DNA of 64,000 nt from Promethearchaeota archaeon. GTDB lineage: Archaea > Asgardarchaeota > Lokiarchaeia > Sigyniarchaeales > SOKP01. Below are positions 2,825 to 54,877 of the stretch, piece by piece (the stretch's first letter is position 1; each line of letters starts with the position of its first letter). The notes under the pieces were generated by a model. The model saw only the letters and a list, made by a program, of their open reading frames with translations. It had not been told where the DNA came from and ran no database searches. Made by a program: the position numbers and the translations under genes. The stretch lies in NCBI GenBank assembly GCA_016926735.1, contig JAFGOA010000223.1:35147-99146 (forward strand), written 5' to 3'.

Positions 2825-2934
2825 CCTGAAATTCCTCTTTCTTTTTTGTTACAAACTCTTTTCTTCTCCTTGAATTAATTGACATAGCATAACAATTAAA
2901 CTCTTAACAGATTTAAGACTTCATAAGCTTTCAT
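2808..2934 (-). pseudogene. tnpA: IS607 TnpA (serine recombinase) remnant with large internal deletion
   Basis: Hand translation: MKAYEVLNLLR from ATG 2934, joined out of frame to FNCYAMSINSRRRKEFVTKKKEEFQDEISI*, whose stop overlaps the tnpB start; both pieces resemble IS607 TnpA termini. Confidence 0.7.
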
Positions 2935-3632
2935 ATTATTAAATGAATAATTCTTAATAAAAAAGGTAAGTGAGTCTTATGATTTTTAATAAAAATGGGG
3001 ATGATATTATCTCAACTACTTATTGGAATTTTATAAAAATCTATAATTATTTATAATAGTTAAAAATTCATTACACTTTTGGGATTTAAATGGATATTTA
3101 GATAGAAATACTCAAGCATTTATCTTCCGTAACCCTAATTATTATACTGAAATAAAAGAAATTATGAATAGTGATTGGATACATAGATTATTCAATCAGG
3201 CTCTCGATAATTTATAACAATTTAAAAATTCTATTTCTTTTCTAAAAACACATAGTTTTGAAAAATTATTTTTATTTCAAAATACGATATATTTATCCAA
3301 TTATATATGTATAGATTAACATAACTTGAAGATACTTCAAATAATTTAATATTTTTGTTTTCTTTAGGAAAAAAAAATTTTCCCTAATATTTTAGGATGG
3401 TAAATTTTCAAACGAGCTTTTTTTTGTTTTTTACTACATCCTAAGAGTATATGATTTTATAAATACAAAATCTATAGAATAATCTCAAATAAAAAAAAAA
3501 AATTGAGAAAATAATGTAAGAAAATTGTACTATATAATGAAGGGATTTGATATCTATACAAAATAGATTTTAATGAAAAGGAGATTAATAAGAGAAAATT
3601 TTAGGTAAAATTTTAATATAAGGTGAATAAAA

Positions 3633-4724
3633 ATGAAAAAAATACGATATCCTACTGAAAATGAAAAAGAAGGGATTACTAAGCTAGAAAATTTGATTAA
3701 AAATTATCCATTTCATTTTTTGAAGGTTTATAACGAATTTAAACAAGATCAAGAATTCCCTATGCTTCAAATAATTATTTCTTGTAAGATGAAAGGATTT
3801 TCTATTCCCTCTTCAAATAATTATATGCGAAATATAATGCGATATAGAGGATTAAATACAGATGATATCAATCGATTTGAAAATTTAGTTATTAATCATC
3901 TAAATTCTTTAATAGAGGAAATAGGATATACAGAAACTAAAGAATATTTAGAAATGAATAATTCATTTAAAGAACTTAATGTGTGGATTGAAGAAATGTA
4001 TAAAAGATTAAGTTATTTTGATAATGATGGTGGGTGGAATAAAGTTGGAGTGGATGACTACCAAAGAATCGAAGAAATTTTAAAAAGAGAAAAAATATAT
4101 AGAGGGACAGAAAACGATGTAAAGGTTAAATTCAAACAAATTTTTGGTTTTCAAGATTTAGTTATAAGAGAAGAAACATACAAGAATCTTACTACTTCAG
4201 AAGAATTTGATGAGATTATTTCGAATATATTAATGTTACTCGGAAAGGGATCATATAAATGCAATGGTGGAAAGGTTAGATTAATTGGATCTTCAGTAGA
4301 AGATATCGAAGAAAGTTGCATCTATTCTTCCCTTCAAAAATATCCCAGAGTATTGAAAAATATGGATCAAGCATTGGAACATAAAATTAAGAAGAAATGG
4401 AATGAAGTAGCATTGTATTGCTGTAAAGCTATTGAATATTTTTATAAAATAATATTAGGTAATAAAAAAAAATATGAAAAATTAACACTTAGATCATTAA
4501 CAGAAGCAATAAGAAGAAATCAAAATAAATTATTAAAAATTGATGATACTGTGTGGCTGGGAGTTGATAAATTATTACAATCTTGTGTTAATTTAGTTGG
4601 GACAATAAGAAATTCCAGAGACTCAGGTCACGGAAATGATCGAGATGTTGAAAAATGGGAAAGTCAAATGGTATACAATTATACAATCGTATTATTAAGA
4701 ACTCTAATACAAATTATAAAATAA
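3633..4724 (+). CDS. Protein with C-terminal HEPN/Abi_C-like domain (possible defence RNase)
   Basis: C-terminal helical domain with IRNSRDSGHG (R-x-H HEPN-like motif) after CCKAIEYFYK. Confidence 0.6.
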   Translation: MKKIRYPTENEKEGITKLENLIKNYPFHFLKVYNEFKQDQEFPMLQIIISCKMKGFSIPSSNNYMRNIMRYRGLNTDDINRFENLVINHLNSLIEEIGYTETKEYLEMNNSFKELNVWIEEMYKRLSYFDNDGGWNKVGVDDYQRIEEILKREKIYRGTENDVKVKFKQIFGFQDLVIREETYKNLTTSEEFDEIISNILMLLGKGSYKCNGGKVRLIGSSVEDIEESCIYSSLQKYPRVLKNMDQALEHKIKKKWNEVALYCCKAIEYFYKIILGNKKKYEKLTLRSLTEAIRRNQNKLLKIDDTVWLGVDKLLQSCVNLVGTIRNSRDSGHGNDRDVEKWESQMVYNYTIVLLRTLIQIIK

Positions 4725-5412: not shown

Positions 5413-5543
5413 TTATAGTCCTTTAGGGCCATTTTCATATATTTTATATGCTTCATCAACAGATGTATTATCATGAACAATTGCTCTTACAGCTTTGATC
5501 ATACCAATAGGACTATCACTTTGAAAAATATTTCTTTCCATAT
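5413..5543 (-). pseudogene. Displaced second copy of the aldolase last exon ([42 protein letters not shown])
   Basis: Same 131-nt length as exon 3 (6893-7023); 20 differences over the 129 nt from ATG to stop by hand alignment. Confidence 0.9.
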
Positions 5544-5559
5544 ATTCAATTACGATATT

Positions 5560-6708
5560 TTATTTTAATTCTTCAAATTTCTTTCCTTTAAGTTGCTTAT
5601 GCCAATAATGTGGTTTTGGTTTTTTAATATTCCATTTTAAACATATTTCATTAACAATCCTTGGATATACATTATATATTTCACATATTTTTTTAATTGG
5701 CATTTTCCAAACTAATTTTATCAGTTCATCCTTTTGAATGGAGTCTTCAAAAATATTTTTAGATGCAACTCTAAAATATTTCCTCTTTCGCGATAAACTA
5801 TCTGGAAAATTATCTAACATTTCATTAAATAGTTTTCCGCCCAAACTAAAATAATAATTCCCTTTACCATCGGGATTGATTTTATGAGGAATATTAAATC
5901 TTTTTTTTATTTCTTCTAAAATTAATTTACTACCAATATGAAATTGATTAGTCCCTTCTTTTCCATCACCATCAAAAAAACCTAGTAAAAATGCCAGATC
6001 TAATTCTCTATTATCTAAATTAGGAAATCTTGTTCTTTTTTTACTACTTTTTACATAACCTAATGTGTATAGATCACTTTGAACATTAGAATTTTTAAAA
6101 GTAATCCTTACATATGTTCTTAGTTCATTTTTAGTCATTTTTGTTCGATATTTCTTGTATTTAGGATTTAAACCTATCGCTTTACAATACCTATCTATTA
6201 AAATTTCATCATTTTTGCTTAATTCAAGTTTTAATTCTCCTCTTTCTCCTAAATAAACTTCAGCCCACAATATTCCAAGCCAATAAGCTTTATTTTTTGA
6301 ATTAATTTTTTTAAAGTAATTTATATTTAAATCAAGATGATAGTTTAAAACTTTTAGACCTTTTTTTCTAGATATTGGTAATTCTTCATTTGATTCTTGG
6401 TATTTCTTAATAAATTTTAATGTATTCTTCCCACGTAAGCCAAAATAAGCTTTAATATTATTACTCCATTCGTTTAATTCATCTAAAGCAATTTTAAATT
6501 GAGGATTCACTTTAATATTTCTTATAATTCTTTTTATACGTCTTTCATAATCACATAATATAAGACTTAATTTTTTATAAGATAAACTTCCATTATGAAT
6601 TATTTTAACTTTAAAACCATTAATAAATAAGGTGGATGATACAATCTTAAAAATCTCGTTTCTTAAATCTTTTATTAATTCTGATGCAGAATAAGTAAGT
6701 CTTCTCAT
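5560..6708 (-). CDS. LAGLIDADG-family homing endonuclease-like protein (free-standing)
   Basis: Two LAGLIDADG-type helices, KAYWLGILWAEVY (degenerate) and LAFLLGFFDGDG; very basic; C-terminal HTH-like segment. Confidence 0.8.
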   Translation of the reverse strand: MRRLTYSASELIKDLRNEIFKIVSSTLFINGFKVKIIHNGSLSYKKLSLILCDYERRIKRIIRNIKVNPQFKIALDELNEWSNNIKAYFGLRGKNTLKFIKKYQESNEELPISRKKGLKVLNYHLDLNINYFKKINSKNKAYWLGILWAEVYLGERGELKLELSKNDEILIDRYCKAIGLNPKYKKYRTKMTKNELRTYVRITFKNSNVQSDLYTLGYVKSSKKRTRFPNLDNRELDLAFLLGFFDGDGKEGTNQFHIGSKLILEEIKKRFNIPHKINPDGKGNYYFSLGGKLFNEMLDNFPDSLSRKRKYFRVASKNIFEDSIQKDELIKLVWKMPIKKICEIYNVYPRIVNEICLKWNIKKPKPHYWHKQLKGKKFEELK

Positions 6709-6892
6709 TCCTCAATTATTTTGTTGTGTTTATTTCTGGTCTTTTTTCTATTTTTATCTAATTGAATTACTTCTCTAGTTTAAAGAATCTTTATTGATTT
6801 ATATGGTTTTTATTAATATATATTTTAATAGAGTCTGCAGATTTTTTTAAATAAAATATTTATATTATAACAAGAAAAAAAAAATAAAAAAA

Positions 6893-7737
6893 TTAAAGTC
6901 CTTTTGGACCGTTTTCATATATGCTATATGCTTCATCAATAGACTTATTCTCATGAACTATAGCTCTTACTGCTTTAATCATGCCAATAGGGCTGTCACT
7001 TTGGAATATATTTCTTCCCATATTTGCGCCTATAATTATAAAAAATAGTTATAGTCTACGCCGACAGCTCCTTTATCAATAGCATTCCTTGCCATAATTA
7101 AAGCATCACGCTCCTCAATCTTCTTTCCACCAGCTATTACAACCGGTACTGGAGCGATAGAAGTGACTTCGTCGAAGTTCTCACAATAATATGTTTTTAC
7201 AAAAGTGGCACCTATTTCTGCTGCCATTCTACTTGCCATACCCAAATATCTTGCATCTCTAACCATTTCCCGTCCAACTGCTGTTACTGCTAAGACTGGA
7301 ATACCATAATCTTGTCCCCAATTTACAATCTTAGTTAAATTCATTAAAGATTGTTTTTCAAATTCACCACCTACAAAGATGGAACAGGTAATTGCTGAAA
7401 CATTTAATCTTATCGCATCTTCAATTGTAACATTTATTTCTTCATTTGAAAGTTCTTTTAACATACTTGCTCCGGCAGATACTCTTAGAACGATAGGTAC
7501 ATCAAAATCCGGTGAAACACAATTTCGAAGCATACCTCGTGTTAACATTAAAGCATCAGCATATTCAAAAAGGGGTTCTAACTTCTTAAAAGATTTTAAC
7601 ATTCCTGGGATATTGCCAAAATATTCATGAGTATGTATTAATTATACATATTTTCCATGATCGACAGCAAGCATGACGCAATGCCCAGATTTAGGTTTAA
7701 TTATTCGGGATAATCTATTTTGCATTCCCCAATCCAT
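6893..7737 (-). CDS. lsrF: LsrF/DhnA-type class I aldolase/thiolase in three exons (7737-7654, 7623-7056, 7023-6893), 260 aa after splicing
   Basis: Exon 1 [13 protein letters not shown]...MLAVDHG; exon 2 YFG...ATFVKTYY...VVIAGGKK...GAVGV; exon 3 [24 protein letters not shown]; 84+568+131=783 nt, in frame. Confidence 0.88.
7024..7055 (-). other. Candidate 32-nt BHB intron 2 of the aldolase gene
   Basis: mRNA GCGU-AG^A-CUAUAACUAU UUUUU AUAAUUAUAG-GCGC-AA^A; splicing gives GGC GUA GAU AUG GGA (GVDMG). Confidence 0.85.
7624..7653 (-). other. Candidate 30-nt BHB intron 1 of the aldolase gene
   Basis: mRNA CAUG-GA^A-AA UAUGUAU AAUUA AUACAUA CU-CAUG-AA^U; splicing gives GAU CAU GGA UAU UUU (DHGYF); contains an in-frame UAA. 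Confidence 0.85.
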
Positions 7738-7862
7738 AGTTTTATCACTTATTTCTTATAATAATTTTATTTTGATATCGTAATAAGTAATGAAATTATT
7801 ATAAATTTTAAGTTTAATAGCTAAAATAAGATATTTTAAAAATTTGTATTAAATATTGTTTT

Positions 7863-8126
7863 TTATTTCAATTCTGTTGTTTTGGTTGCCAAAATAAGAT
7901 CTATTTTTTCATATCCTCTAATTATACCCTTTTGATCGATAAATACAACGAATTGATGATCAGAACAGACAATCCCTGCAGGAACATGTATTTTAACACA
8001 GCCAGATTCTTTTTTTGAAAAAATTTCTGTTGGAATTTTAACTATTTTATCAATTCCGCAAGTTGGACAAGATATATTGAACTCTCTCATGATTGATTCT
8101 AATTTCTTATAATTAATATTTAACAT
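7863..8126 (-). CDS. Small putative zinc-binding protein
   Basis: CPTC ... CSDH ligand pattern. Confidence 0.6.
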   Translation of the reverse strand: MLNINYKKLESIMREFNISCPTCGIDKIVKIPTEIFSKKESGCVKIHVPAGIVCSDHQFVVFIDQKGIIRGYEKIDLILATKTTELK

Positions 8127-24099: not shown

Positions 24100-24363
24100 A
24101 TGGATTTTTTACATGCTTTATTATTTTTATTTATAATTTTGTATTTTTCTTATGTTATAAAAGCTAACTACTTTTACCTTGTTTTTATAGCAGTTGTTTT
24201 CTTATTTTTTTTTATTTCTCTATTATTTTTAGAGCCAATGCAATTTATAAATGCTATAGTAAATCAGATAATTTTAACACCTTGGGGATTGATTATCTTA
24301 ATTATTTTGGGTATTTTGTTGATATTCACTTCAAAACTAAAAAAAAAAGTTGAATATAAGTAA
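24100..24363 (+). CDS. Small membrane protein (likely start ATG 24100, not 24007)
   Basis: Three hydrophobic segments; the longer start lies inside the operator palindrome. Confidence 0.5.
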   Translation: MDFLHALLFLFIILYFSYVIKANYFYLVFIAVVFLFFFISLLFLEPMQFINAIVNQIILTPWGLIILIILGILLIFTSKLKKKVEYK

Positions 24364-24388
24364 AATAATTAATTTATAAGAATAATTT

Positions 24389-26068
24389 TCAATAAAATCT
24401 ATTTATTTTTCTTAATCCAAAAAATAATAGGAAAATAGTAGGGAATATAAGAAGAATCTGATGCAACAGAAAAATTAACTCAAGTAGATCAAGATTTATA
24501 GCAGAATTTGGCAAAAAATAAAGTATAATATTTAAAGAAATAAATAAGCAAATAAGTTGTAGTATTATAATATAGTATGTATTAATAAACACTATTTTTT
24601 TCTCGTATTTAAATAATGGATTATAGCATTGTAGTCCTACTCCCAAAAATAATAAAGTAATATTATTTGATAAAATAAGCAAAAAGAGAAATAAAATAAG
24701 CAAAATATCAAATAAGAATATTAACGAAATTAAACAGGTAATTAAAATATCTACTATCAATATAATTAAGAATTGAGAATAAATATATGAAATTATAAGA
24801 GACTTCAAACCTCTTGGAGATTTTCGAAAATGAAAGATAAGTTCTTTTGAATCTAAAAATGAAGATGTACTATTAAAAATACTATAGAAAAATGAACCTG
24901 TCCATGTAATTAAGAAAATAACTAAAAATTTATATTGATCAAAATTAATAGTAATTTCTATAGTTTCATTAAAAGGAGAATCTTCAAGAAATTGAATTAG
25001 ATTTGGATAAGAAAAAAAGAATACGATTCCAGATAAAATTAATATTGCTACTGTAAAAAACAATTTCGCAATATTTTCTTTTTCTCGAAAGAATTCTTTT
25101 AATTGTGTTATTACTAAAATTTTCCATTTATTGAGAATTAACTTACTAAATATTTTAAAAATTTGATTATTATATGTAAGAAACTTTGATTTAGAGTTTT
25201 GATAAGTATTTTCTGAAATTATTGAACTATTGACACTTTTATAATATATAAATAAGGTAATAATTGGTAATAAAACAGATAAAATTATTGTTATCCATAA
25301 TATTGTTTCAGATATAGTCAAGAAAGTAGGATCAATAACATAAGCAATTATATTTGAATACCAAAATGGAGGTAAGAAATTAAGATATATTTTATAATCT
25401 TGCGAAACTGAAAGAAAAAGCACAAGAAATTGAAGGCTGTATACTATTATTTTTATCAAAAGAGTGAAAGTATAAATAAAATAGACTCGATTTCTCTGTA
25501 ATTTATAAATTCTAAATGCATTATATTTAATGATATTCATTATTATCATTCCAAGAAGGAGGCTAAAAATAAGTAATAAAAACAAATTGAGATATATAAA
25601 AAAAAAATCGATTATTTGAATCTCTTTTATTAAACCTAAAATAGATATGAAAAAAGGACCAACAATTAACACAATCATTAAATAAAAGGGAATTCTCCAT
25701 AAGAAATCTGCCATAACTACATCTCTAATCTTTATTGGTGATGATAAATAGATTTCTCTCATATCTATTTCTGCTTTTCTATTAAAATCGTAAATTGGAA
25801 CTAAAAAATTAACTAAAAAAATTATAAAAAAGAAACTCCCTAAAATATTAAGGAAATAATCTCTTATATACTCAGAACCGAATACCTTAAAAATTGAAGG
25901 AATAATTGAATTCAAGACAATAGGTCCAAAATATATCCCCCAAAATATAAGAAAGCCTATAATAAAAATTAAGAATCTTTTTCTATTTTTTTGAAATCGA
26001 AATGTAAAAATACGAAATTCTTTTTTTGCTATTGTTAGCCAAATTCTTATATTTTTTTTTTCAAGCAT
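24389..26068 (-). CDS. Putative ABC exporter permease
   Basis: Multi-TM, IAKKEFR N-terminus, divergent from an ABC ATPase. Confidence 0.7.
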   Translation of the reverse strand: MLEKKNIRIWLTIAKKEFRIFTFRFQKNRKRFLIFIIGFLIFWGIYFGPIVLNSIIPSIFKVFGSEYIRDYFLNILGSFFFIIFLVNFLVPIYDFNRKAEIDMREIYLSSPIKIRDVVMADFLWRIPFYLMIVLIVGPFFISILGLIKEIQIIDFFFIYLNLFLLLIFSLLLGMIIMNIIKYNAFRIYKLQRNRVYFIYTFTLLIKIIVYSLQFLVLFLSVSQDYKIYLNFLPPFWYSNIIAYVIDPTFLTISETILWITIILSVLLPIITLFIYYKSVNSSIISENTYQNSKSKFLTYNNQIFKIFSKLILNKWKILVITQLKEFFREKENIAKLFFTVAILILSGIVFFFSYPNLIQFLEDSPFNETIEITINFDQYKFLVIFLITWTGSFFYSIFNSTSSFLDSKELIFHFRKSPRGLKSLIISYIYSQFLIILIVDILITCLISLIFLFDILLILFLFLLILSNNITLLFLGVGLQCYNPLFKYEKKIVFINTYYIIILQLICLFISLNIILYFLPNSAINLDLLELIFLLHQILLIFPTIFLLFFGLRKINRFY

Positions 26069-26291
26069 CTGAAGCAGGCTAAATTAGAATATGTATCATT
26101 TCCCAATTTATTTAATAATATAGTATACAAAATACCTTTGGAGTTTTAAATTTATTTAGAAGATTTTTAAATATATTTTAAGAGAGATAAATTATTAAAA
26201 TTTTAGCTATTCTATATTCTATTAACCTAATTTCATTTAAAATTTAATTATTTTATTAATATATATATTTATATCAGTTAAAAAAGAGATC

Positions 26292-27059
26292 ATGGAAAAT
26301 AATTTTGCAATTAACACAGAAAATTTATCTAAATCTTATAATAACAAAATAGCTGTTTCTAATCTAAGTCTAAAAGTTAATTATGGTAAGATTTATGGGT
26401 TATTAGGCCCAAATGGAGCTGGAAAGACAACAACTATCCAAATTTTAAATTGTATAATAAAACCTGATTCAGGTAAAGCTCAAATTCATGGATTTGATAT
26501 TATGAGCCAAAGTGATAATGTGAAAAAAAATACAGGATATCTACCAGAAACCCCTGCTTTATATGAAAAATTAACTCCAGAAGAATATCTTGAATTTATA
26601 GGAGAATTATATTTTATTCCAAAAATTGTATTAAAAAAGCGTATAATTGATTTATTGGAACTTTTTGATTTAGACAATAGAAAAGATGATTTAATCGGGA
26701 ATTATTCAAAAGGAATGAAACAAAAAGTTAACATATGTGCTGCATTAATTCCAGATCCTCCAATTATTTTTTTAGATGAACCAACCTCGAATTTAGATCC
26801 TGCTTCGGCAAAGATTATTAAAGATTTGTTTAAATCATTGATTTTAAATGCTCAAAAAACCATTTTTCTCTGTACTCACCTTCTTGATGTTGCTAAAGAA
26901 CTATGTGATAGAATTGGTATTATTAATAACGGTTGTTTATTAATTGAAGGAACTCCTAAAGAAATTGTAGATTCTGGAAATTATCTAAATTTAGAAGATG
27001 CTTATCTGAATATTTTAGATATTTCTCATAATAAAGATCTATTAAAATGGAGAAGTTAA
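26292..27059 (+). CDS. ABC transporter ATP-binding protein
   Basis: GPNGAGKTT, YSKGMKQK, FLDEPT. Confidence 0.95.
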   Translation: MENNFAINTENLSKSYNNKIAVSNLSLKVNYGKIYGLLGPNGAGKTTTIQILNCIIKPDSGKAQIHGFDIMSQSDNVKKNTGYLPETPALYEKLTPEEYLEFIGELYFIPKIVLKKRIIDLLELFDLDNRKDDLIGNYSKGMKQKVNICAALIPDPPIIFLDEPTSNLDPASAKIIKDLFKSLILNAQKTIFLCTHLLDVAKELCDRIGIINNGCLLIEGTPKEIVDSGNYLNLEDAYLNILDISHNKDLLKWRS

Positions 27060-27248
27060 AAAAGATATTATATAAAAATAACAACCTATTGGGAGTATAC
27101 ATTTTATTTTCGAAAGCTATTTAAATATATTTTTTATGAAATAACATTATGATTTAAAAAAATATAATATTTAAAATAAGTCTAAAGATACTTAGCATAA
27201 GCCTAATTAAAGTTTAACTTTTAAATATATTGAATAATTTATAAAAGT

Positions 27249-29252
27249 ATGAGTAAAAATAAATACGAATTTAAAGCAGAAATTAAAAAACTATTAGATA
27301 TCTTGAGTAAATCCCTTTATCAACATAAAGAAGTTTTCCTCAGAGAATTGATTAGTAATTCTGTAGATGCACTTAAAAAAATTCATTTTTTATCATTAAC
27401 AGATAAAAATATAGAAGATATTGAAGATAATCTTAAAATTGAAATTATCATTGATTCTGATTCTAAAACAATTACTGTTAAAGATACAGGAATTGGAATG
27501 AATAAAGAGGAGCTTATTAATAATTTAGGAACTATTGCTGGAAGTGGTTCTCAAAAGTTTCTAGAACAACTTAATAATACCCAAAAAATAGATAATAAAA
27601 ATGTGGATTTAGATGTTATAGGTCAATTTGGTGTTGGGTTTTATTCGATTTTCATGGTTGCTGATAAAGTTAAAGTAATTTCGAAATCATATATTAAAGA
27701 AGAGAACGCTTATGAATGGGAATCAGATGGAACTGGAGAATTTATTGTAAATAATAATGATAAATCTACAAGAGGAACAGATGTAATATTATTTCTTAAA
27801 GAAGATGAGAAAGAATACCTTGATAAATTTAGGATTGAATCAATAATAAAAAAATATTCTAATTATGTCTCTTTTCCAATTTACGTTTCTGAAATAAAAA
27901 AAGAAGCAGAAGAGGAAAAAGAGAAAAAAGTTGAGGAAGTGGAAGATAAAAAAAAACCTGAACCTATTAATGAATTAACTCCTTTATGGAAAAAAAATTC
28001 AAAAGATATTACTGAAGAGGAATATAAAAGCTTTTACCATTTTATTTCCAATAGATATGATAATTATTCACATGTTATTAATTATAGTATAGATGGCACT
28101 GTTCAATTTCGTTCTATACTTTTCATACCTGAATCTGATATCAATCAATTTATAAGACCTGATGATGAATATGGCTTAACTCTTTATTCTAAAAATGTAA
28201 TGATTATGAAAAATTGCAGTGATTTAATTCCAAAATGGATGAGATTTATAAAAGGAGTTGTTGATTCAAATGATATTCCATTAAATATCAGTAGAGATAC
28301 CATTCAAACTAATCGGGTAATGATGAAGATAGAAAAATTACTAATTAAAAAAATATTAAGAGAACTTGATAATATCGCTGAAAATGAACCAGAGAAATAT
28401 AAGAAATTATGGGAAAGTTTTTCTCCATATATAAAAGAGGGTATTCTTTCTGACGCTTTTAGAACAGATAAACTTCTTACTTATCTTCGCTTTAATAGCT
28501 CAAAATCAAAAGAGGGCGAATATAGAAGTATTGAAGATTATATAAAAGATATGCCTGAAACTCAAAAAGAACTATATTATTTAATTGGCGAAAATCTAAA
28601 TACTTTGAAGTTATCACCTCATTTAGGATATTATAATGAAAATAATATGGAAGTTATATTATTAGATGAACCTATTGATAATTTCTTAATGATGAATGTA
28701 CGTGAATATAAAAAAACAATACTGGAAGGTGAAAATGAAGAAATTAAATCATACACCTTTACTCCCATAGATGTAACAGAACCTACTAAGGAAGATAAAG
28801 AAGCATCAGAGGATGAGGGTAAAAAAGATAAAACTGAAGAACTTATTCCTGAGAATATAAAGAAATTCTTTGAATATGTAAAATCTACTCTTGGAGAAAA
28901 GATTCTTGAGGTTAAACTGTCTGATCGTCTCTATCAAAATGTATGTAGATTGGCAAATCCTGCTGGTGGTATGACTTCAAGTATGCAAAGAGCTATGAGA
29001 TATTGGACAAAAACAGAATATGGAAAAGATTTTGAAATTCCGAGGAAAATTTTAGAGTTTAATAAGGATCATCCTATTTTTAATAAATTAATTGAACTTT
29101 ATGAAAATGATCCAAAAGATGATAAAGTCACATTAATTATAACTCAACTTTTTGAAAATTGCCTTTTAGCTGAAGGTGATCTACCAAATCCATCTCTTAT
29201 GGTTCCAAGAATAAATCAATTAATTGAGTTATTATTAGTTGAAAAAAAATAG
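27249..29252 (+). CDS. htpG: Molecular chaperone HtpG/Hsp90
   Basis: FLRELISN, DTGIGM, IGQFGVGFYS, PLNISR. Confidence 0.97.
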   Translation: MSKNKYEFKAEIKKLLDILSKSLYQHKEVFLRELISNSVDALKKIHFLSLTDKNIEDIEDNLKIEIIIDSDSKTITVKDTGIGMNKEELINNLGTIAGSGSQKFLEQLNNTQKIDNKNVDLDVIGQFGVGFYSIFMVADKVKVISKSYIKEENAYEWESDGTGEFIVNNNDKSTRGTDVILFLKEDEKEYLDKFRIESIIKKYSNYVSFPIYVSEIKKEAEEEKEKKVEEVEDKKKPEPINELTPLWKKNSKDITEEEYKSFYHFISNRYDNYSHVINYSIDGTVQFRSILFIPESDINQFIRPDDEYGLTLYSKNVMIMKNCSDLIPKWMRFIKGVVDSNDIPLNISRDTIQTNRVMMKIEKLLIKKILRELDNIAENEPEKYKKLWESFSPYIKEGILSDAFRTDKLLTYLRFNSSKSKEGEYRSIEDYIKDMPETQKELYYLIGENLNTLKLSPHLGYYNENNMEVILLDEPIDNFLMMNVREYKKTILEGENEEIKSYTFTPIDVTEPTKEDKEASEDEGKKDKTEELIPENIKKFFEYVKSTLGEKILEVKLSDRLYQNVCRLANPAGGMTSSMQRAMRYWTKTEYGKDFEIPRKILEFNKDHPIFNKLIELYENDPKDDKVTLIITQLFENCLLAEGDLPNPSLMVPRINQLIELLLVEKK

Positions 29253-40673: not shown

Positions 40674-42242
40674 ATGAGATTAATAGTAAAAAAAATAAAT
40701 TTTGAAACTGGTAATATGAAAGACGTTGTGCTTAACCATAATGATGCTGAAAAAATAGGACAAAAAGTTGGAGAACGTGTTATTATTCAAAATATAAATA
40801 CTAAAAACTTAAGTGAAAAATATTGGGTTGCTATATTAAAAATTTCATATTCAGATTCTATAGTAGCTCCAGGAGAAATAGGAATTTTTGCTGACACATT
40901 TAAAGATATAAAAAATTTAAAAGAAAATTCCAAAGTCTCAGTTTTAGCTGCTGAAGCACCTACATCATATAAAAATATCCAAAAAAAAATTAAAGGTTTT
41001 AAACTTAATTCTGATGAAATTCATAGTATTATAAAGGATGCAGTATCTGGGAAATTGTCACAAATAGAAATTGCATCATTTATTACTGGTATTTCTATTA
41101 ATAATATGGATTCTGATGAAATGACAGCATTAACATTAGCAGAAGGTAACAGTGGAAGAAAATTTGATTTTGGTCCGGAAGTCTATGACAAACATAGTAC
41201 ATAAAATTGCACTCTGTAATTTTAGCTAAAAGGTGGAGTTCCGGGTAATAAAGTAACACTTATAATCGTTCCAATAATTGCAGCTGCAGGATTAATTATT
41301 CCGAAAACAAGTACTCGTGCTATAACATCTCCTTCAGGTACAGCCGATTCAATGGAGGTTCTAGCGCCAATCTCTTTTAATTCAGAAGAAGTAAAAGAAT
41401 TTATCTCAAAAAGAGGAGCATGTATTATTTGGGGAGGTGCTTTAGATATAGCACCTGCAGATAATGTTTTTATAGAAGTTGAACGTCCACTTCATTTTGA
41501 TCCTATGGGTTTAATGATACCTTCAATTTTAGCTAAAAAACTTAGTATGGGTGTAAAAAACCTAGTATTAGATGTACCTATTGGTAAAGGAACAAAATTT
41601 CCTACACTTAAAGATGGACAAAATTTTGCTCTCATATTCAATCAAATTGCCAAAAATATTGGTATTCATAGTGAGTGTGCTTTAACCTTAGCTCATCAAC
41701 CTGTGGGTCACTGTGTTGGACCGGCAATTGAAGCTCAAGAAGCAATTTCTCTTCTGAGGGACTATAAAGTAGGACCTAATTCTTTAATAGAAAAATCAAC
41801 TTCATTAGCAGGTATTCTTTTAGAGATGGCAGGAAAAGCTAAAAATGGAGAAGGACAATTATTAGCTAAAGATATCTTAAAATCAGGGAAAGCTTATACA
41901 AAAATGAAAGAAATTATTGAAATGCAAGGTGGTAATCCTAATATTTTGCCAGAAGATATAGAATTAGGTCCATATAAACTTGATATCTATGCTCAAAAAT
42001 CAGGTCATATCACTCAAGTGGATAATGCTTTAATTAATCAAATTGCAAAAGCAGCAGGCTGCCCCTATTCTAAAACTTCAGGAGTTAGAATTTATAAAAA
42101 ACAAGGTGCTAAAATAAATAAAGGTGATATTATTTTTACAATCTATTCTAATACTGAAAATAAGTTAAAAAGAGCTGAAAAATTATACAATAGTTCTGGA
42201 GGGCCTATTATATTAGGAGGAATGCTCATAGAACGTATTTAA
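40674..42242 (+). CDS. deoA: AMP phosphorylase (thymidine phosphorylase family) in two exons (40674-41200, 41231-42242), 512 aa after splicing
   Basis: DKHST|GGVPGNK, PKTSTRAITSPSGTADSMEVL, SILAKKL; both track ORFs share one frame, interrupted by a 30-nt insertion with three stops. Confidence 0.92.
41201..41230 (+). other. Candidate 30-nt BHB intron in AMP phosphorylase
   Basis: UAGU-AC^A-UAAAAUUGC ACUCU GUAAUUUUA-GCUA-AA^A; splicing gives CAU AGU ACA GGU GGA (HSTGG). Confidence 0.87.
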
Positions 42243-54148: not shown

Positions 54149-54169
54149 AATTTTTAATTTAATTATTGA

Positions 54170-54877
54170 TTAAAGGTTCAATTCTTTAACGATTTCTTCT
54201 ATTCCCTCATTATTTTTAGCGCTTGTTAGAATCACTTTAATATTTGGATTTATCTCTTTAGCATCATTGACCATTTTATCTAGATCTGTTCCTAATCTTT
54301 CTTTCAGATCGATTTTATTTATGATTGCTATCTCTGACATTCTAAATAATAACGGATGTTTTTCTATAACCCATTCACCTTCAGTAGTGGAAACTATAAT
54401 AATTCGTTTATCCATTCCCAATTGAAATTCAGCTGGGCAAATTAGATTTCCTACATTTTCTATAAAAATAAGATTGTATTTTTTTAGGTCGATATTTTTC
54501 ACAATCTTAAGAATATAATATGCATTTAGAGCACATTCTCTTCCTGTATTTATTTGAATAGTGTCAACATTTTTTTTTTGAATACGATCAGCATCCACTC
54601 GAGTTGTTATATCTCCACATATAACCAAAATTTTATATTTCTGAGAAAGTATATCTGTTATTTTTTCTAAAATTGCTGTTTTTCCAGCACCGATTGCTCC
54701 AACAATATCAAATGATTTTATATTGTGTTCATGAAGCTTATTATTGATTAATTCCGCAATAGAATCATTATTTTTTTCCACTTCTTTTTGTGTTTGAATG
54801 ATAATTTGACGATTGTGTTCTTGTGCTAATTTTCTACTTTCTAATTCCATGACTCTTTCGTATTCTTGATCTTTCAT
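54170..54877 (-). CDS. hypB: Hydrogenase nickel-insertion GTPase HypB
   Basis: GAIGAGKT, QINTGREC, IENVGNLICPA, INKID. Confidence 0.92.
   Translation of the reverse strand: MKDQEYERVMELESRKLAQEHNRQIIIQTQKEVEKNNDSIAELINNKLHEHNIKSFDIVGAIGAGKTAILEKITDILSQKYKILVICGDITTRVDADRIQKKNVDTIQINTGRECALNAYYILKIVKNIDLKKYNLIFIENVGNLICPAEFQLGMDKRIIIVSTTEGEWVIEKHPLLFRMSEIAIINKIDLKERLGTDLDKMVNDAKEINPNIKVILTSAKNNEGIEEIVKELNL

Follow-up and report, generated by a model that had tools for sequence, protein, structure and literature searches.

How can an archaeal gene whose coding sequence falls into three separate open reading frames (ORFs) specify a single enzyme, and why does its last coding segment occur a second time behind an unrelated gene? 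This question is raised by a 64,000-nucleotide (nt) stretch of DNA from a Promethearchaeota archaeon of the Loki-type Asgard group (contig JAFGOA010000223.1, positions 35,147 to 99,146; hereafter the window), which carries on its minus strand an aldolase gene that is interrupted twice. A first-pass annotation, made from the sequence alone, had proposed that the second interruption, 32 nt at positions 7055..7024, is an intron of the bulge-helix-bulge (BHB) type. We find that this intron is borne out, and that the annotation had overlooked its setting: it forms the left end of a larger and apparently horizontally mobile structure, in which a replacement exon 3 is followed by a LAGLIDADG gene and then by a second, displaced exon 3. 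We assign a probability of about 0.85 to the reading that 7055..7024 is a BHB intron of the aldolase pre-mRNA and the left end of a horizontally moving module.

The aldolase gene and the structure of intron 2

The base composition of the window is very AT-rich (about 27% G+C). Within it, the aldolase gene and the parts of its second intron are arranged as follows.

7654..7737, minus strand: aldolase exon 1, with the start codon at 7737..7735 and ending with the Gly codon of a DHG motif; placed by homologue alignment and a match to NF006081 positions 32-61 (E 1.4e-10)
7624..7653, minus strand: intron 1, 30 nt, in frame and containing a TAA; full hBHBh' motif; found in 6 of 90 orthologues
7056..7623, minus strand: aldolase exon 2, whose last base is the G of a split Asp codon; Pfam DeoC PF01791 (E 4.4e-14) and NF006081 positions 73-252 (267 bits)
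7024..7055, minus strand: intron 2, 32 nt, frameshifting, a predicted relaxed BHB with a weak exon-side outer helix; same site in 12 of 90 distinct orthologues
7058..7061, minus strand: 5' strand of the central 4-bp helix, GCGU, in the Gly-Val codons of exon 2; pairs with 7029-7026
7026..7029, minus strand: 3' strand of the central 4-bp helix, GCGC, in the intron; assigned from pairing and covariation
7030..7054, minus strand: inner, intron-side hairpin of 10 pairs with one mismatch and the loop UUUUU; the minimum free energy (MFE) structure agrees
6893..7023, minus strand: aldolase exon 3 copy A, the functional copy, comprising the AU that finishes the Asp codon, 42 codons, and TAA; NF006081 positions 252-288 (E 2e-12)

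Read without splicing, the exon 2 ORF (7602..7036, minus strand) enters the insertion and terminates at a TAA within it, and the ORF behind it (7021..6893, minus strand) opens in a different frame with the Met of a conserved motif. Gene callers split or truncate genes of this kind, and here ORFs of 31, 188, and 42 amino acids (aa) would replace one 260-aa enzyme. When the exons are joined by coordinates, with both introns removed, the coding sequence is 783 nt long and encodes 260 aa. The spliced protein aligns without a gap at the intron 2 junction with 12 full-length homologues (only forms of at least 330 aa, with N- or C-terminal extensions, were used), and the same invariant motif is present in all 12; its identity to named homologues is 56-68%. 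The motifs expected to hold the catalytic Schiff-base lysine and the putative phosphate-binding residues are conserved in this alignment. Beside the intron 1 junction the alignment has a gap of one residue, and the 30-nt excision predicted from the BHB motif preserves an invariant DHGYF motif. The best NCBIfam model is NF006081, for LsrF-like 3-hydroxy-5-phosphonooxypentane-2,4-dione thiolase. The three exons match positions 32-61, 73-252, and 252-288 of its 291 positions with 41, 267, and 47 bits, so that the profile is unbroken at position 252, across the intron 2 insertion; each exon, scored separately, is below the 297-bit cutoff of the model. By Pfam, exon 2 belongs to the DeoC/LacD aldolase family. 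The initial assignment to the class I aldolases stands, on the DeoC match and the continuity of the profile over the exons, and can be refined to the LsrF-like thiolase/aldolase family NF006081. Judged by its best-matching family, the gene would encode an LsrF/DhnA-type aldolase of the DeoC/LacD superfamily.

The insertion has the properties first claimed for it. At 7055..7024 of the minus strand it is 32 nt long, shifts the frame, and contains two stops, with a TAA that ends the exon 2 ORF, and every element of the predicted motif, the GCGU:GCGC helix, the bulges AGA and AAA, and the inner stem, lies at the position given for it. The bulges occupy 7057-7055 (AGA) and 7025-7023 (AAA), and the inner stem pairs 7054-7045 with 7039-7030, with a single C.A mismatch. 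Cuts after the second base of each bulge, as parts of a preprint describe for BHB motifs of tRNA (bioRxiv 10.64898/2026.10.13.758758), would join ...GUAG to AUAUG... and form GAU (Asp); this is the junction that had been predicted to restore the conserved motif, and it gives the colinear protein described above. Because the intron and exon 3 both begin with A, a boundary shift of one base leaves the product unchanged, and excision of 7054..7023 yields the same molecule as excision of 7055..7024. BHB motifs of comparable stringency occur in the genome at about 8e-4 per site and length (634,607 matches); the motif at intron 2 is more than chance because it coincides with the one or two choices of boundary at which the frame is restored. 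The MFE fold of a 61-nt context recovers the central helix, the first bulge, and the hairpin.

We compared this structure among 101 orthologous loci, 21 from a genome search and 80 from a search for related public loci (by their record titles mostly Promethearchaeota or Promethearchaeia, a few with other Asgard labels). They reduce to 90 distinct gene sequences, as 11 pairs were duplicate retrievals of a single genome each. Twelve of the 90 carry intron 2, all at the same site (32 nt in 10 alleles, 30 nt in 2), and the other 78 lack it exactly. Over the 12 intron-2 alleles, 89.1% of all cells in the predicted pairs are paired, a share that falls to 25-50% if each partner is displaced by 1-3 columns, and 8 of the 16 pairs show changes on both sides. 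None of 500 column shuffles reaches the observed values; related sequences can outscore shuffles, so more weight belongs to the controls with displaced partners and to the kind of changes seen. In the central helix, 97.9% of cells are paired, and its second pair (columns 12:45) is C-G in seven alleles, U-A in three, and A-U in two. Here the wobble base of an exon Gly codon (GGC/GGU/GGA), a synonymous third base, covaries with a base of the intron. In the inner helix, 90.8% of cells are paired and 7 of 10 pairs have compensatory changes. From this covariation, the presence or absence of the insertion among relatives, and the selection on exon 3 described below, we infer that the transcript is spliced; the best explanation, supported by these comparisons, is a BHB intron that would be removed by the tRNA-splicing endonuclease. 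Three metatranscriptomes of one and the same study shared next to none of the sequence words, and their reads gave 0 contigs, a result that speaks neither for nor against splicing.

The source genome (3.88 Mb in 238 contigs, 99.3% complete, a metagenome-type assembly) contains two EndA-family genes (PF01974), with ORFs of 203 and 202 aa, at 8963-9190 of contig C33 and 19024-19269 of contig C100. The catalytic Tyr-His-Lys triad is presumably kept by the first of these ORFs alone, which would fit an alpha/beta pair. Parts of a published study describe Asgard EndA as an (alpha-beta)2 type with a loop tied to a broad substrate range (PMC5829648), and passages of the preprint cited above give two EndA paralogues in 44 of 60 Asgard genomes (bioRxiv 10.64898/2026.10.13.758758). 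In the splicing reaction that we propose, the GCGU at the end of exon 2 would pair with the GCGC at the 3' end of the intron, a two-subunit EndA would cut each bulge behind its second base, and ligation of the exons by an RtcB-type enzyme would give the GAU codon and the 260-aa reading frame. Intron 1 (7653..7624) would be removed in the same way.

Apparent movement of intron 2 with exon 3 and an endonuclease gene

Behind exon 3 copy A, the minus strand continues with three further features.

6709..6892, minus strand: AT-rich spacer that separates exon 3A from the endonuclease gene, seen in the sequence
5560..6708, minus strand: predicted free-standing LAGLIDADG-type homing-endonuclease gene, 382 aa, with two LAGLIDADG-like motifs
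5413..5543, minus strand: exon 3 copy B, displaced and unspliceable, with an intact 42-codon frame, 16 nt after the endonuclease stop

The homology between copies A and B starts exactly at the 3' splice site. The two copies are 84.7% identical in nt sequence, with 0.06 nonsynonymous (dN) and 1.03 synonymous (dS) substitutions per site; this low dN and high dS indicate that they diverged as functional exons in different lineages and not by local duplication and decay. Inspection of the sequence upstream of copy B revealed no BHB half-site there.

Among orthologous loci with at least 1,300 nt of downstream sequence, the endonuclease gene is present at 5 of 10 intron-2 loci and at 0 of 72 intron-less loci, counts for which kinship would make any P value over-optimistic. 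Its orthologues were seen only behind intron-2 alleles, and the five loci that bear it fall in five separate clades of the gene tree. A second copy or remnant of exon 3 follows the endonuclease gene in four of the five, including this genome, while the fifth locus ends too early. The second exon 3 is full length here, nearly so in a relative (G007), and reduced to residues 21-42 and 27-42 in the two others.

Three loci that are 92-96% identical over kilobases show the different states side by side: one (L064) has neither intron nor endonuclease gene, a second (L035) has the intron alone, and in the third (L037) the intron is accompanied by the endonuclease gene and by a remnant of exon 3. Compared with L064, both L035 and L037 differ at about 28 of 131 sites confined to exon 3, a tract bounded by the intron site and the stop codon, versus 3-5% in the flanks. 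In L037 the remnant behind the endonuclease gene is of the native (L064) type, and the spliced exon 3 is foreign. Empty, intron-only, and intron-plus-endonuclease alleles therefore coexist in close relatives, and the foreign tract begins at the insertion site. The same pattern is seen more widely. In all six intron-2 alleles with a close intron-less relative, which represent four clades, exon 3 is 2.5-7 times more diverged than exons 1-2 (P 6e-5 to 1e-12); the remaining six intron-2 alleles, which have no close relative, show no significant exon 3 excess. On the exon tree, intron 2 appears at no fewer than eight separate places, with intron-less sisters. As far as comparison of genomes can show it, the intron is transferred as DNA jointly with a foreign exon 3, accompanied in some genomes by the endonuclease gene and the displaced native exon.

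The 382-aa ORF is a putative LAGLIDADG homing endonuclease, a prediction drawn from its motifs, its relatives, and a weak fold match. Its two LAGLIDADG-like motifs are invariant in the five orthologues, three of which give weak matches to Pfam LAGLIDADG_3. A paralogue in the same genome, 36% identical, scores above the cutoff of that family (24.8 bits), as do 4 of 10 database homologues tested, with a maximum of 46 bits. The top five Foldseek hits are all LAGLIDADG enzymes, including the bI3 maturase, I-DmoI, E-DreI, and I-SceI, with probabilities of 0.97-0.99; the match is weak (best E 7.7e-3, template-modeling score 0.25-0.44). Sequence searches of the PDB with the protein and with a five-member profile returned nothing relevant. 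The family is large, with 11,255 representatives at E ≤ 1e-3, and occurs in 11 of 25 relative genomes in one to four copies each, a patchiness expected of a selfish gene.

Several findings pull against the reading of 7055..7024 as a spliced intron that travels as part of a module. On the side of splicing, the predicted fold in its 61-nt context is no more stable than shuffled sequences (z = -0.37; 64 of 200 shuffles are equally stable), fold energy being a poor criterion in a context as AT-rich as this. The exon-side outer helix amounts to about a single pair, G.U or G-C, and one more position that is paired in 3 of 12 alleles, with 62.5% of cells paired, so the motif would be a relaxed BHB form that requires a broad-specificity enzyme; intron 1 has the strict hBHBh' form, with flanking helices on both sides, and intron 2 does not. 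RtcB (PF01139) was not found in the assembly even at E ≤ 10. Of 12 relatives, 11 have it, among them all three of the same genus, and the missing gene is probably an assembly gap. On the side of mobility, the 382-aa protein scores 16.4 bits for LAGLIDADG_3, below the cutoff of 22.5, and its AlphaFold model is poor (mean predicted local distance difference test score 62, and 30-55 in the core). The endonuclease orthologues are 53-63% identical, which points to old cassettes, and exon 3A of this genome is not closest to the exon 3 of other endonuclease-bearing alleles; the transfers must therefore be old or their donors unsampled. The native copy is weakly indicated here: over 131 nt, the nearest relative shares 84.7% identity with copy B and 81.7% with copy A, a difference of 4 bases, and the native copy is decided in the L037 lineage only. 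Finally, among the 78 intron-less alleles that served as a control, 7 are also over-diverged in exon 3 at P < 0.01.

These seven intron-less alleles form an observation of their own, as they may be traces of earlier visits by the cassette that were followed by loss of the intron.

The alternative that survives best, improbable as we judge it, accepts the intron and denies its movement: the intron would be old and vertically inherited, its patchiness would reflect many precise losses, and the LAGLIDADG gene and the exon 3 duplicate would be an unrelated insertion. The divergence of the endonuclease orthologues fits this history, as do the absence of the gene from half of the 10 intron-2 loci with enough downstream sequence and the apparently largely clade-bound distribution of both intron 1 and an intron in an AMP phosphorylase gene of the window. 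What it leaves unaccounted for is that in six of six testable alleles the foreign exon 3 tract begins exactly at the intron site, that intron-less sisters are 92-96% identical elsewhere, that no intron-less locus of 72 carries the endonuclease gene, and that the exon 3 duplicate in this genome starts exactly at the splice site.

For the horizontally moving module, we propose a specific mechanism to which we give slightly better than even odds. It would be an Asgard homing element of a type not described before, in which a free-standing LAGLIDADG gene invades a conserved codon in a metabolic gene and brings with it a replacement 3' exon, with a tRNA-type BHB mini-intron as its left border, and in which recombination between copies A and B leaves an ORF-less intron. 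The endonuclease would cut intron-less alleles at the conserved Asp/Met junction, and repair from a donor would copy the intron, exon 3A, and the endonuclease gene, with exons 2 and 3 acting as homology arms. The intron would then keep the DNA target split at the exon 2/exon 3A junction, while EndA and a ligase would mend the mRNA. Intron-only alleles could arise if the broken end paired with copy A instead of copy B, or through later recombination between A and B. If true, such an element would be a working DNA-level route to endonuclease-spliced introns within protein-coding genes of the archaeal lineage nearest to eukaryotes, and it would explain the polymorphism of several introns, at four aldolase sites and in the AMP phosphorylase gene.

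We also noted other members of the endonuclease family in unusual settings. The paralogue in the source genome (contig C95 of G000, about 24332-29062; L145) is flanked on one side by an SNF2 helicase gene and on the other by a displaced duplicate of the C terminus of that gene, 50% identical over 65 C-terminal residues. This is the same design without an intron, and the family therefore forms such cassettes elsewhere. In the relatives G013, G014, G011, and G029, family members lie within open frames of 605-1115 aa, which may be fusions with host genes or inteins.

Selection on exon 3 and alternatives to splicing

In all 12 intron-2 alleles, exon 3 is intact over its 42 codons. In the spliced frame, dN averages 0.12 and dS 1.44 (dN/dS about 0.08; 66 pairs from the 12 alleles), and in the two other frames dN exceeds dS. 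This purifying selection indicates that exon 3 is translated in the spliced frame.

By itself, this selection fits equally well with separate translation of exon 3 from its own ATG. We therefore considered a split gene, in which the insertion would end the polypeptide and the last 42 residues, made separately from an ATG of their own at 7021, would bind non-covalently to the remainder, without splicing. Exon 3 does open with a conserved Met codon, and a purine-rich AGG lies a few bases upstream of the ATG. Such an arrangement does not predict the covariation between the exon wobble position and the intron base, nor does it explain the seven compensatory pairs of the hairpin. One allele (L004) lacks the AGG and keeps the helix, 78 of 90 alleles are contiguous, and intron 1, the inserts at a third site of the aldolase gene, and the AMP phosphorylase intron share the BHB geometry with no start codon after them. 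We consider a split gene very unlikely.

The two remaining explanations have negligible probability. A functionless frameshifting insertion, in a pseudogene or as an artifact of a 238-contig metagenome-type assembly, would agree with the broken unspliced frame and is contradicted by the presence of the same insert in 12 distinct alleles from separate assemblies, with all exons intact and under selection and a structure that covaries. Translational bypass or a programmed frameshift over the 32 nt would make use of the hairpin within the gap, but inspection of the sequence shows no matching take-off and landing codons flanking it, 32 nt with two stops cannot be reached by a +1 or -1 shift, and the geometry exactly obeys the BHB rule.

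Other introns and relation to known systems

The aldolase family contains introns at further sites, and a second gene of the window is also interrupted.

40674-42242, plus strand: AMP phosphorylase gene (TIGR03327), with a predicted 30-nt BHB intron at 41201-41230 within the conserved DKHST|GG motif
L004:1048-1113, L022:1958-2017, L074:3458-3517, and L097:2864-2923: aldolase inserts in relatives, at site 3 and at an N-terminal site

Intron 1 of the aldolase gene has a central helix of CAUG (7659-7656) with CAUG (7629-7626), bulges GAA (7655-7653) and AAU (7625-7623), and a 3-bp outer helix. It is precisely absent from the distinct orthologues other than the 6 that carry it; 96.9% of cells are paired, four pairs are compensatory, and its fold has a z of -2.34. 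At site 3, in the IAGG|KK motif, three sequences have inserts of 30-36 nt, two of which give a strict BHB with an in-frame junction. The fourth site (site 0), near the N terminus, is occupied in one sequence, L097. Under the criteria used, a strict BHB was not obtained for site 0 in L097 or for the L022 copy of site 3. Allele L004 has three introns in one aldolase gene.

Two irregular aldolase loci were seen among the relatives. The gene of L009 (G015:C144) has two in-frame TAA codons where all other alleles have GAA, for which a pseudogene, sequencing errors, or another cause is possible. In L081, a tandem segmental duplication (1293-1721 and 2881-3672) has placed an incomplete aldolase copy (residues 119-259) and a duplicate of the 284-aa gene from upstream before the complete gene.

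The AMP phosphorylase gene matches TIGR03327 positions 2-165 and 167-500 with its two pieces, split at 41200/41231. Within the same family-level group, 11 of 16 loci carry its intron; none of the seven loci viewed from more distant families does. By inspection, the codon choice for the exon Ser and His residues covaries with the 3' end of the intron.

The closest precedent is the cbf5 intron of Crenarchaeota, whose presence in the pre-mRNA Watanabe 2002 reportedly described. Like it, the aldolase introns are predicted BHB introns in a coding region, with a hetero-oligomeric tRNA-splicing endonuclease and lineage-specific presence or absence, and parts of a study of that intron report one gain and at least two losses (Yokobori 2009, PMC2738675). 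Unlike cbf5, the aldolase case has an Asgard host, a metabolic gene, two introns per gene (up to three in a relative), and four sites across the family; intron 2 is, moreover, frameshifting and shows evidence of horizontal movement with an exon and an endonuclease gene. According to passages of a 2020 report, the only archaeal mRNA intron known before it was the cbf5 coding-region intron, to which it added a 5' untranslated region intron of its own (PMC7714728); the remark in the first-pass annotation that two introns in one archaeal mRNA would be unusual agrees with what those passages say. The latter intron, in Haloferax volcanii HVO_1309, likewise makes an mRNA a substrate of EndA, as we propose for the aldolase transcript. 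It lies in an untranslated leader and, in the same passages, was shown experimentally (PMC7714728), in contrast to the predicted coding-region intron described here.

Other likenesses concern the mobile module. Archaeal rRNA BHB introns encode LAGLIDADG endonucleases such as I-DmoI, with the gene inside a long rRNA intron. The present module would similarly combine a BHB intron and a LAGLIDADG endonuclease as an archaeal homing unit; unlike those introns, intron 2 is a 32-nt, ORF-less stub in a protein-coding gene, with the endonuclease gene free behind the replacement exon. Collaborative (trans) homing in phages, as described in parts of PMC3984707, also has a free-standing endonuclease gene beside an intron-bearing gene, with the insertion site as the proposed target site and the intron protecting its allele and being carried along. 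Those are ORF-less, self-splicing group I introns, in contrast to the proposed use of host tRNA-splicing enzymes and a duplicate exon here. In the fungal mitochondrial atp6 and cob genes, an endonuclease gene lies between the gene and a displaced partial copy of its 3' end, as it does here; those cases, in the portions of PMC6279837 that treat them, are organellar and have no BHB intron at the junction.

Our search of a limited body of literature found reports of Asgard tRNA introns, none of BHB introns in Asgard protein-coding genes, and none of a BHB intron coupled to a free-standing endonuclease. What appears to be new is that ordinary metabolic genes of an Asgard archaeon carry several predicted BHB introns that are polymorphic between close relatives, and that one of these bears the marks of horizontal spread, probably driven by an endonuclease, a behavior very unusual for protein-coding genes of archaea. 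The richness of Asgard archaea in tRNA introns would thereby be linked to mRNA, and the gain of introns by protein-coding genes can be tested directly in those archaea that are most closely related to eukaryotes.

A genome-wide census scanned both strands of the 3.88-Mb genome for BHB cores of 4+4 bp, which produced the 634,607 matches given above, and retained the cores whose excision would join two open frames, each at least 40 codons long. With the true cut sites, 7,871 matches (4,293 junctions) were retained, no different from the 7,742-7,988 obtained when the 3' cut was shifted by 1-2 nt. The motif scan is no count of real introns because chance fusions of adjacent genes swamp the signal. 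Within the window, the census recovered intron 2 and the AMP phosphorylase intron. A further candidate, at 54176..54152, was rejected, as it would join two unrelated genes, for HypB and an acetyltransferase. The 64-kb window contains no Rfam family and no tRNA gene. In the genome as a whole, ARAGORN predicts introns in 11 of 42 tRNA genes (uncurated), and 21 of its predicted tRNA genes lie within about 6.5 kb of one contig (about 7086-13605), an unusually dense array for an archaeon.

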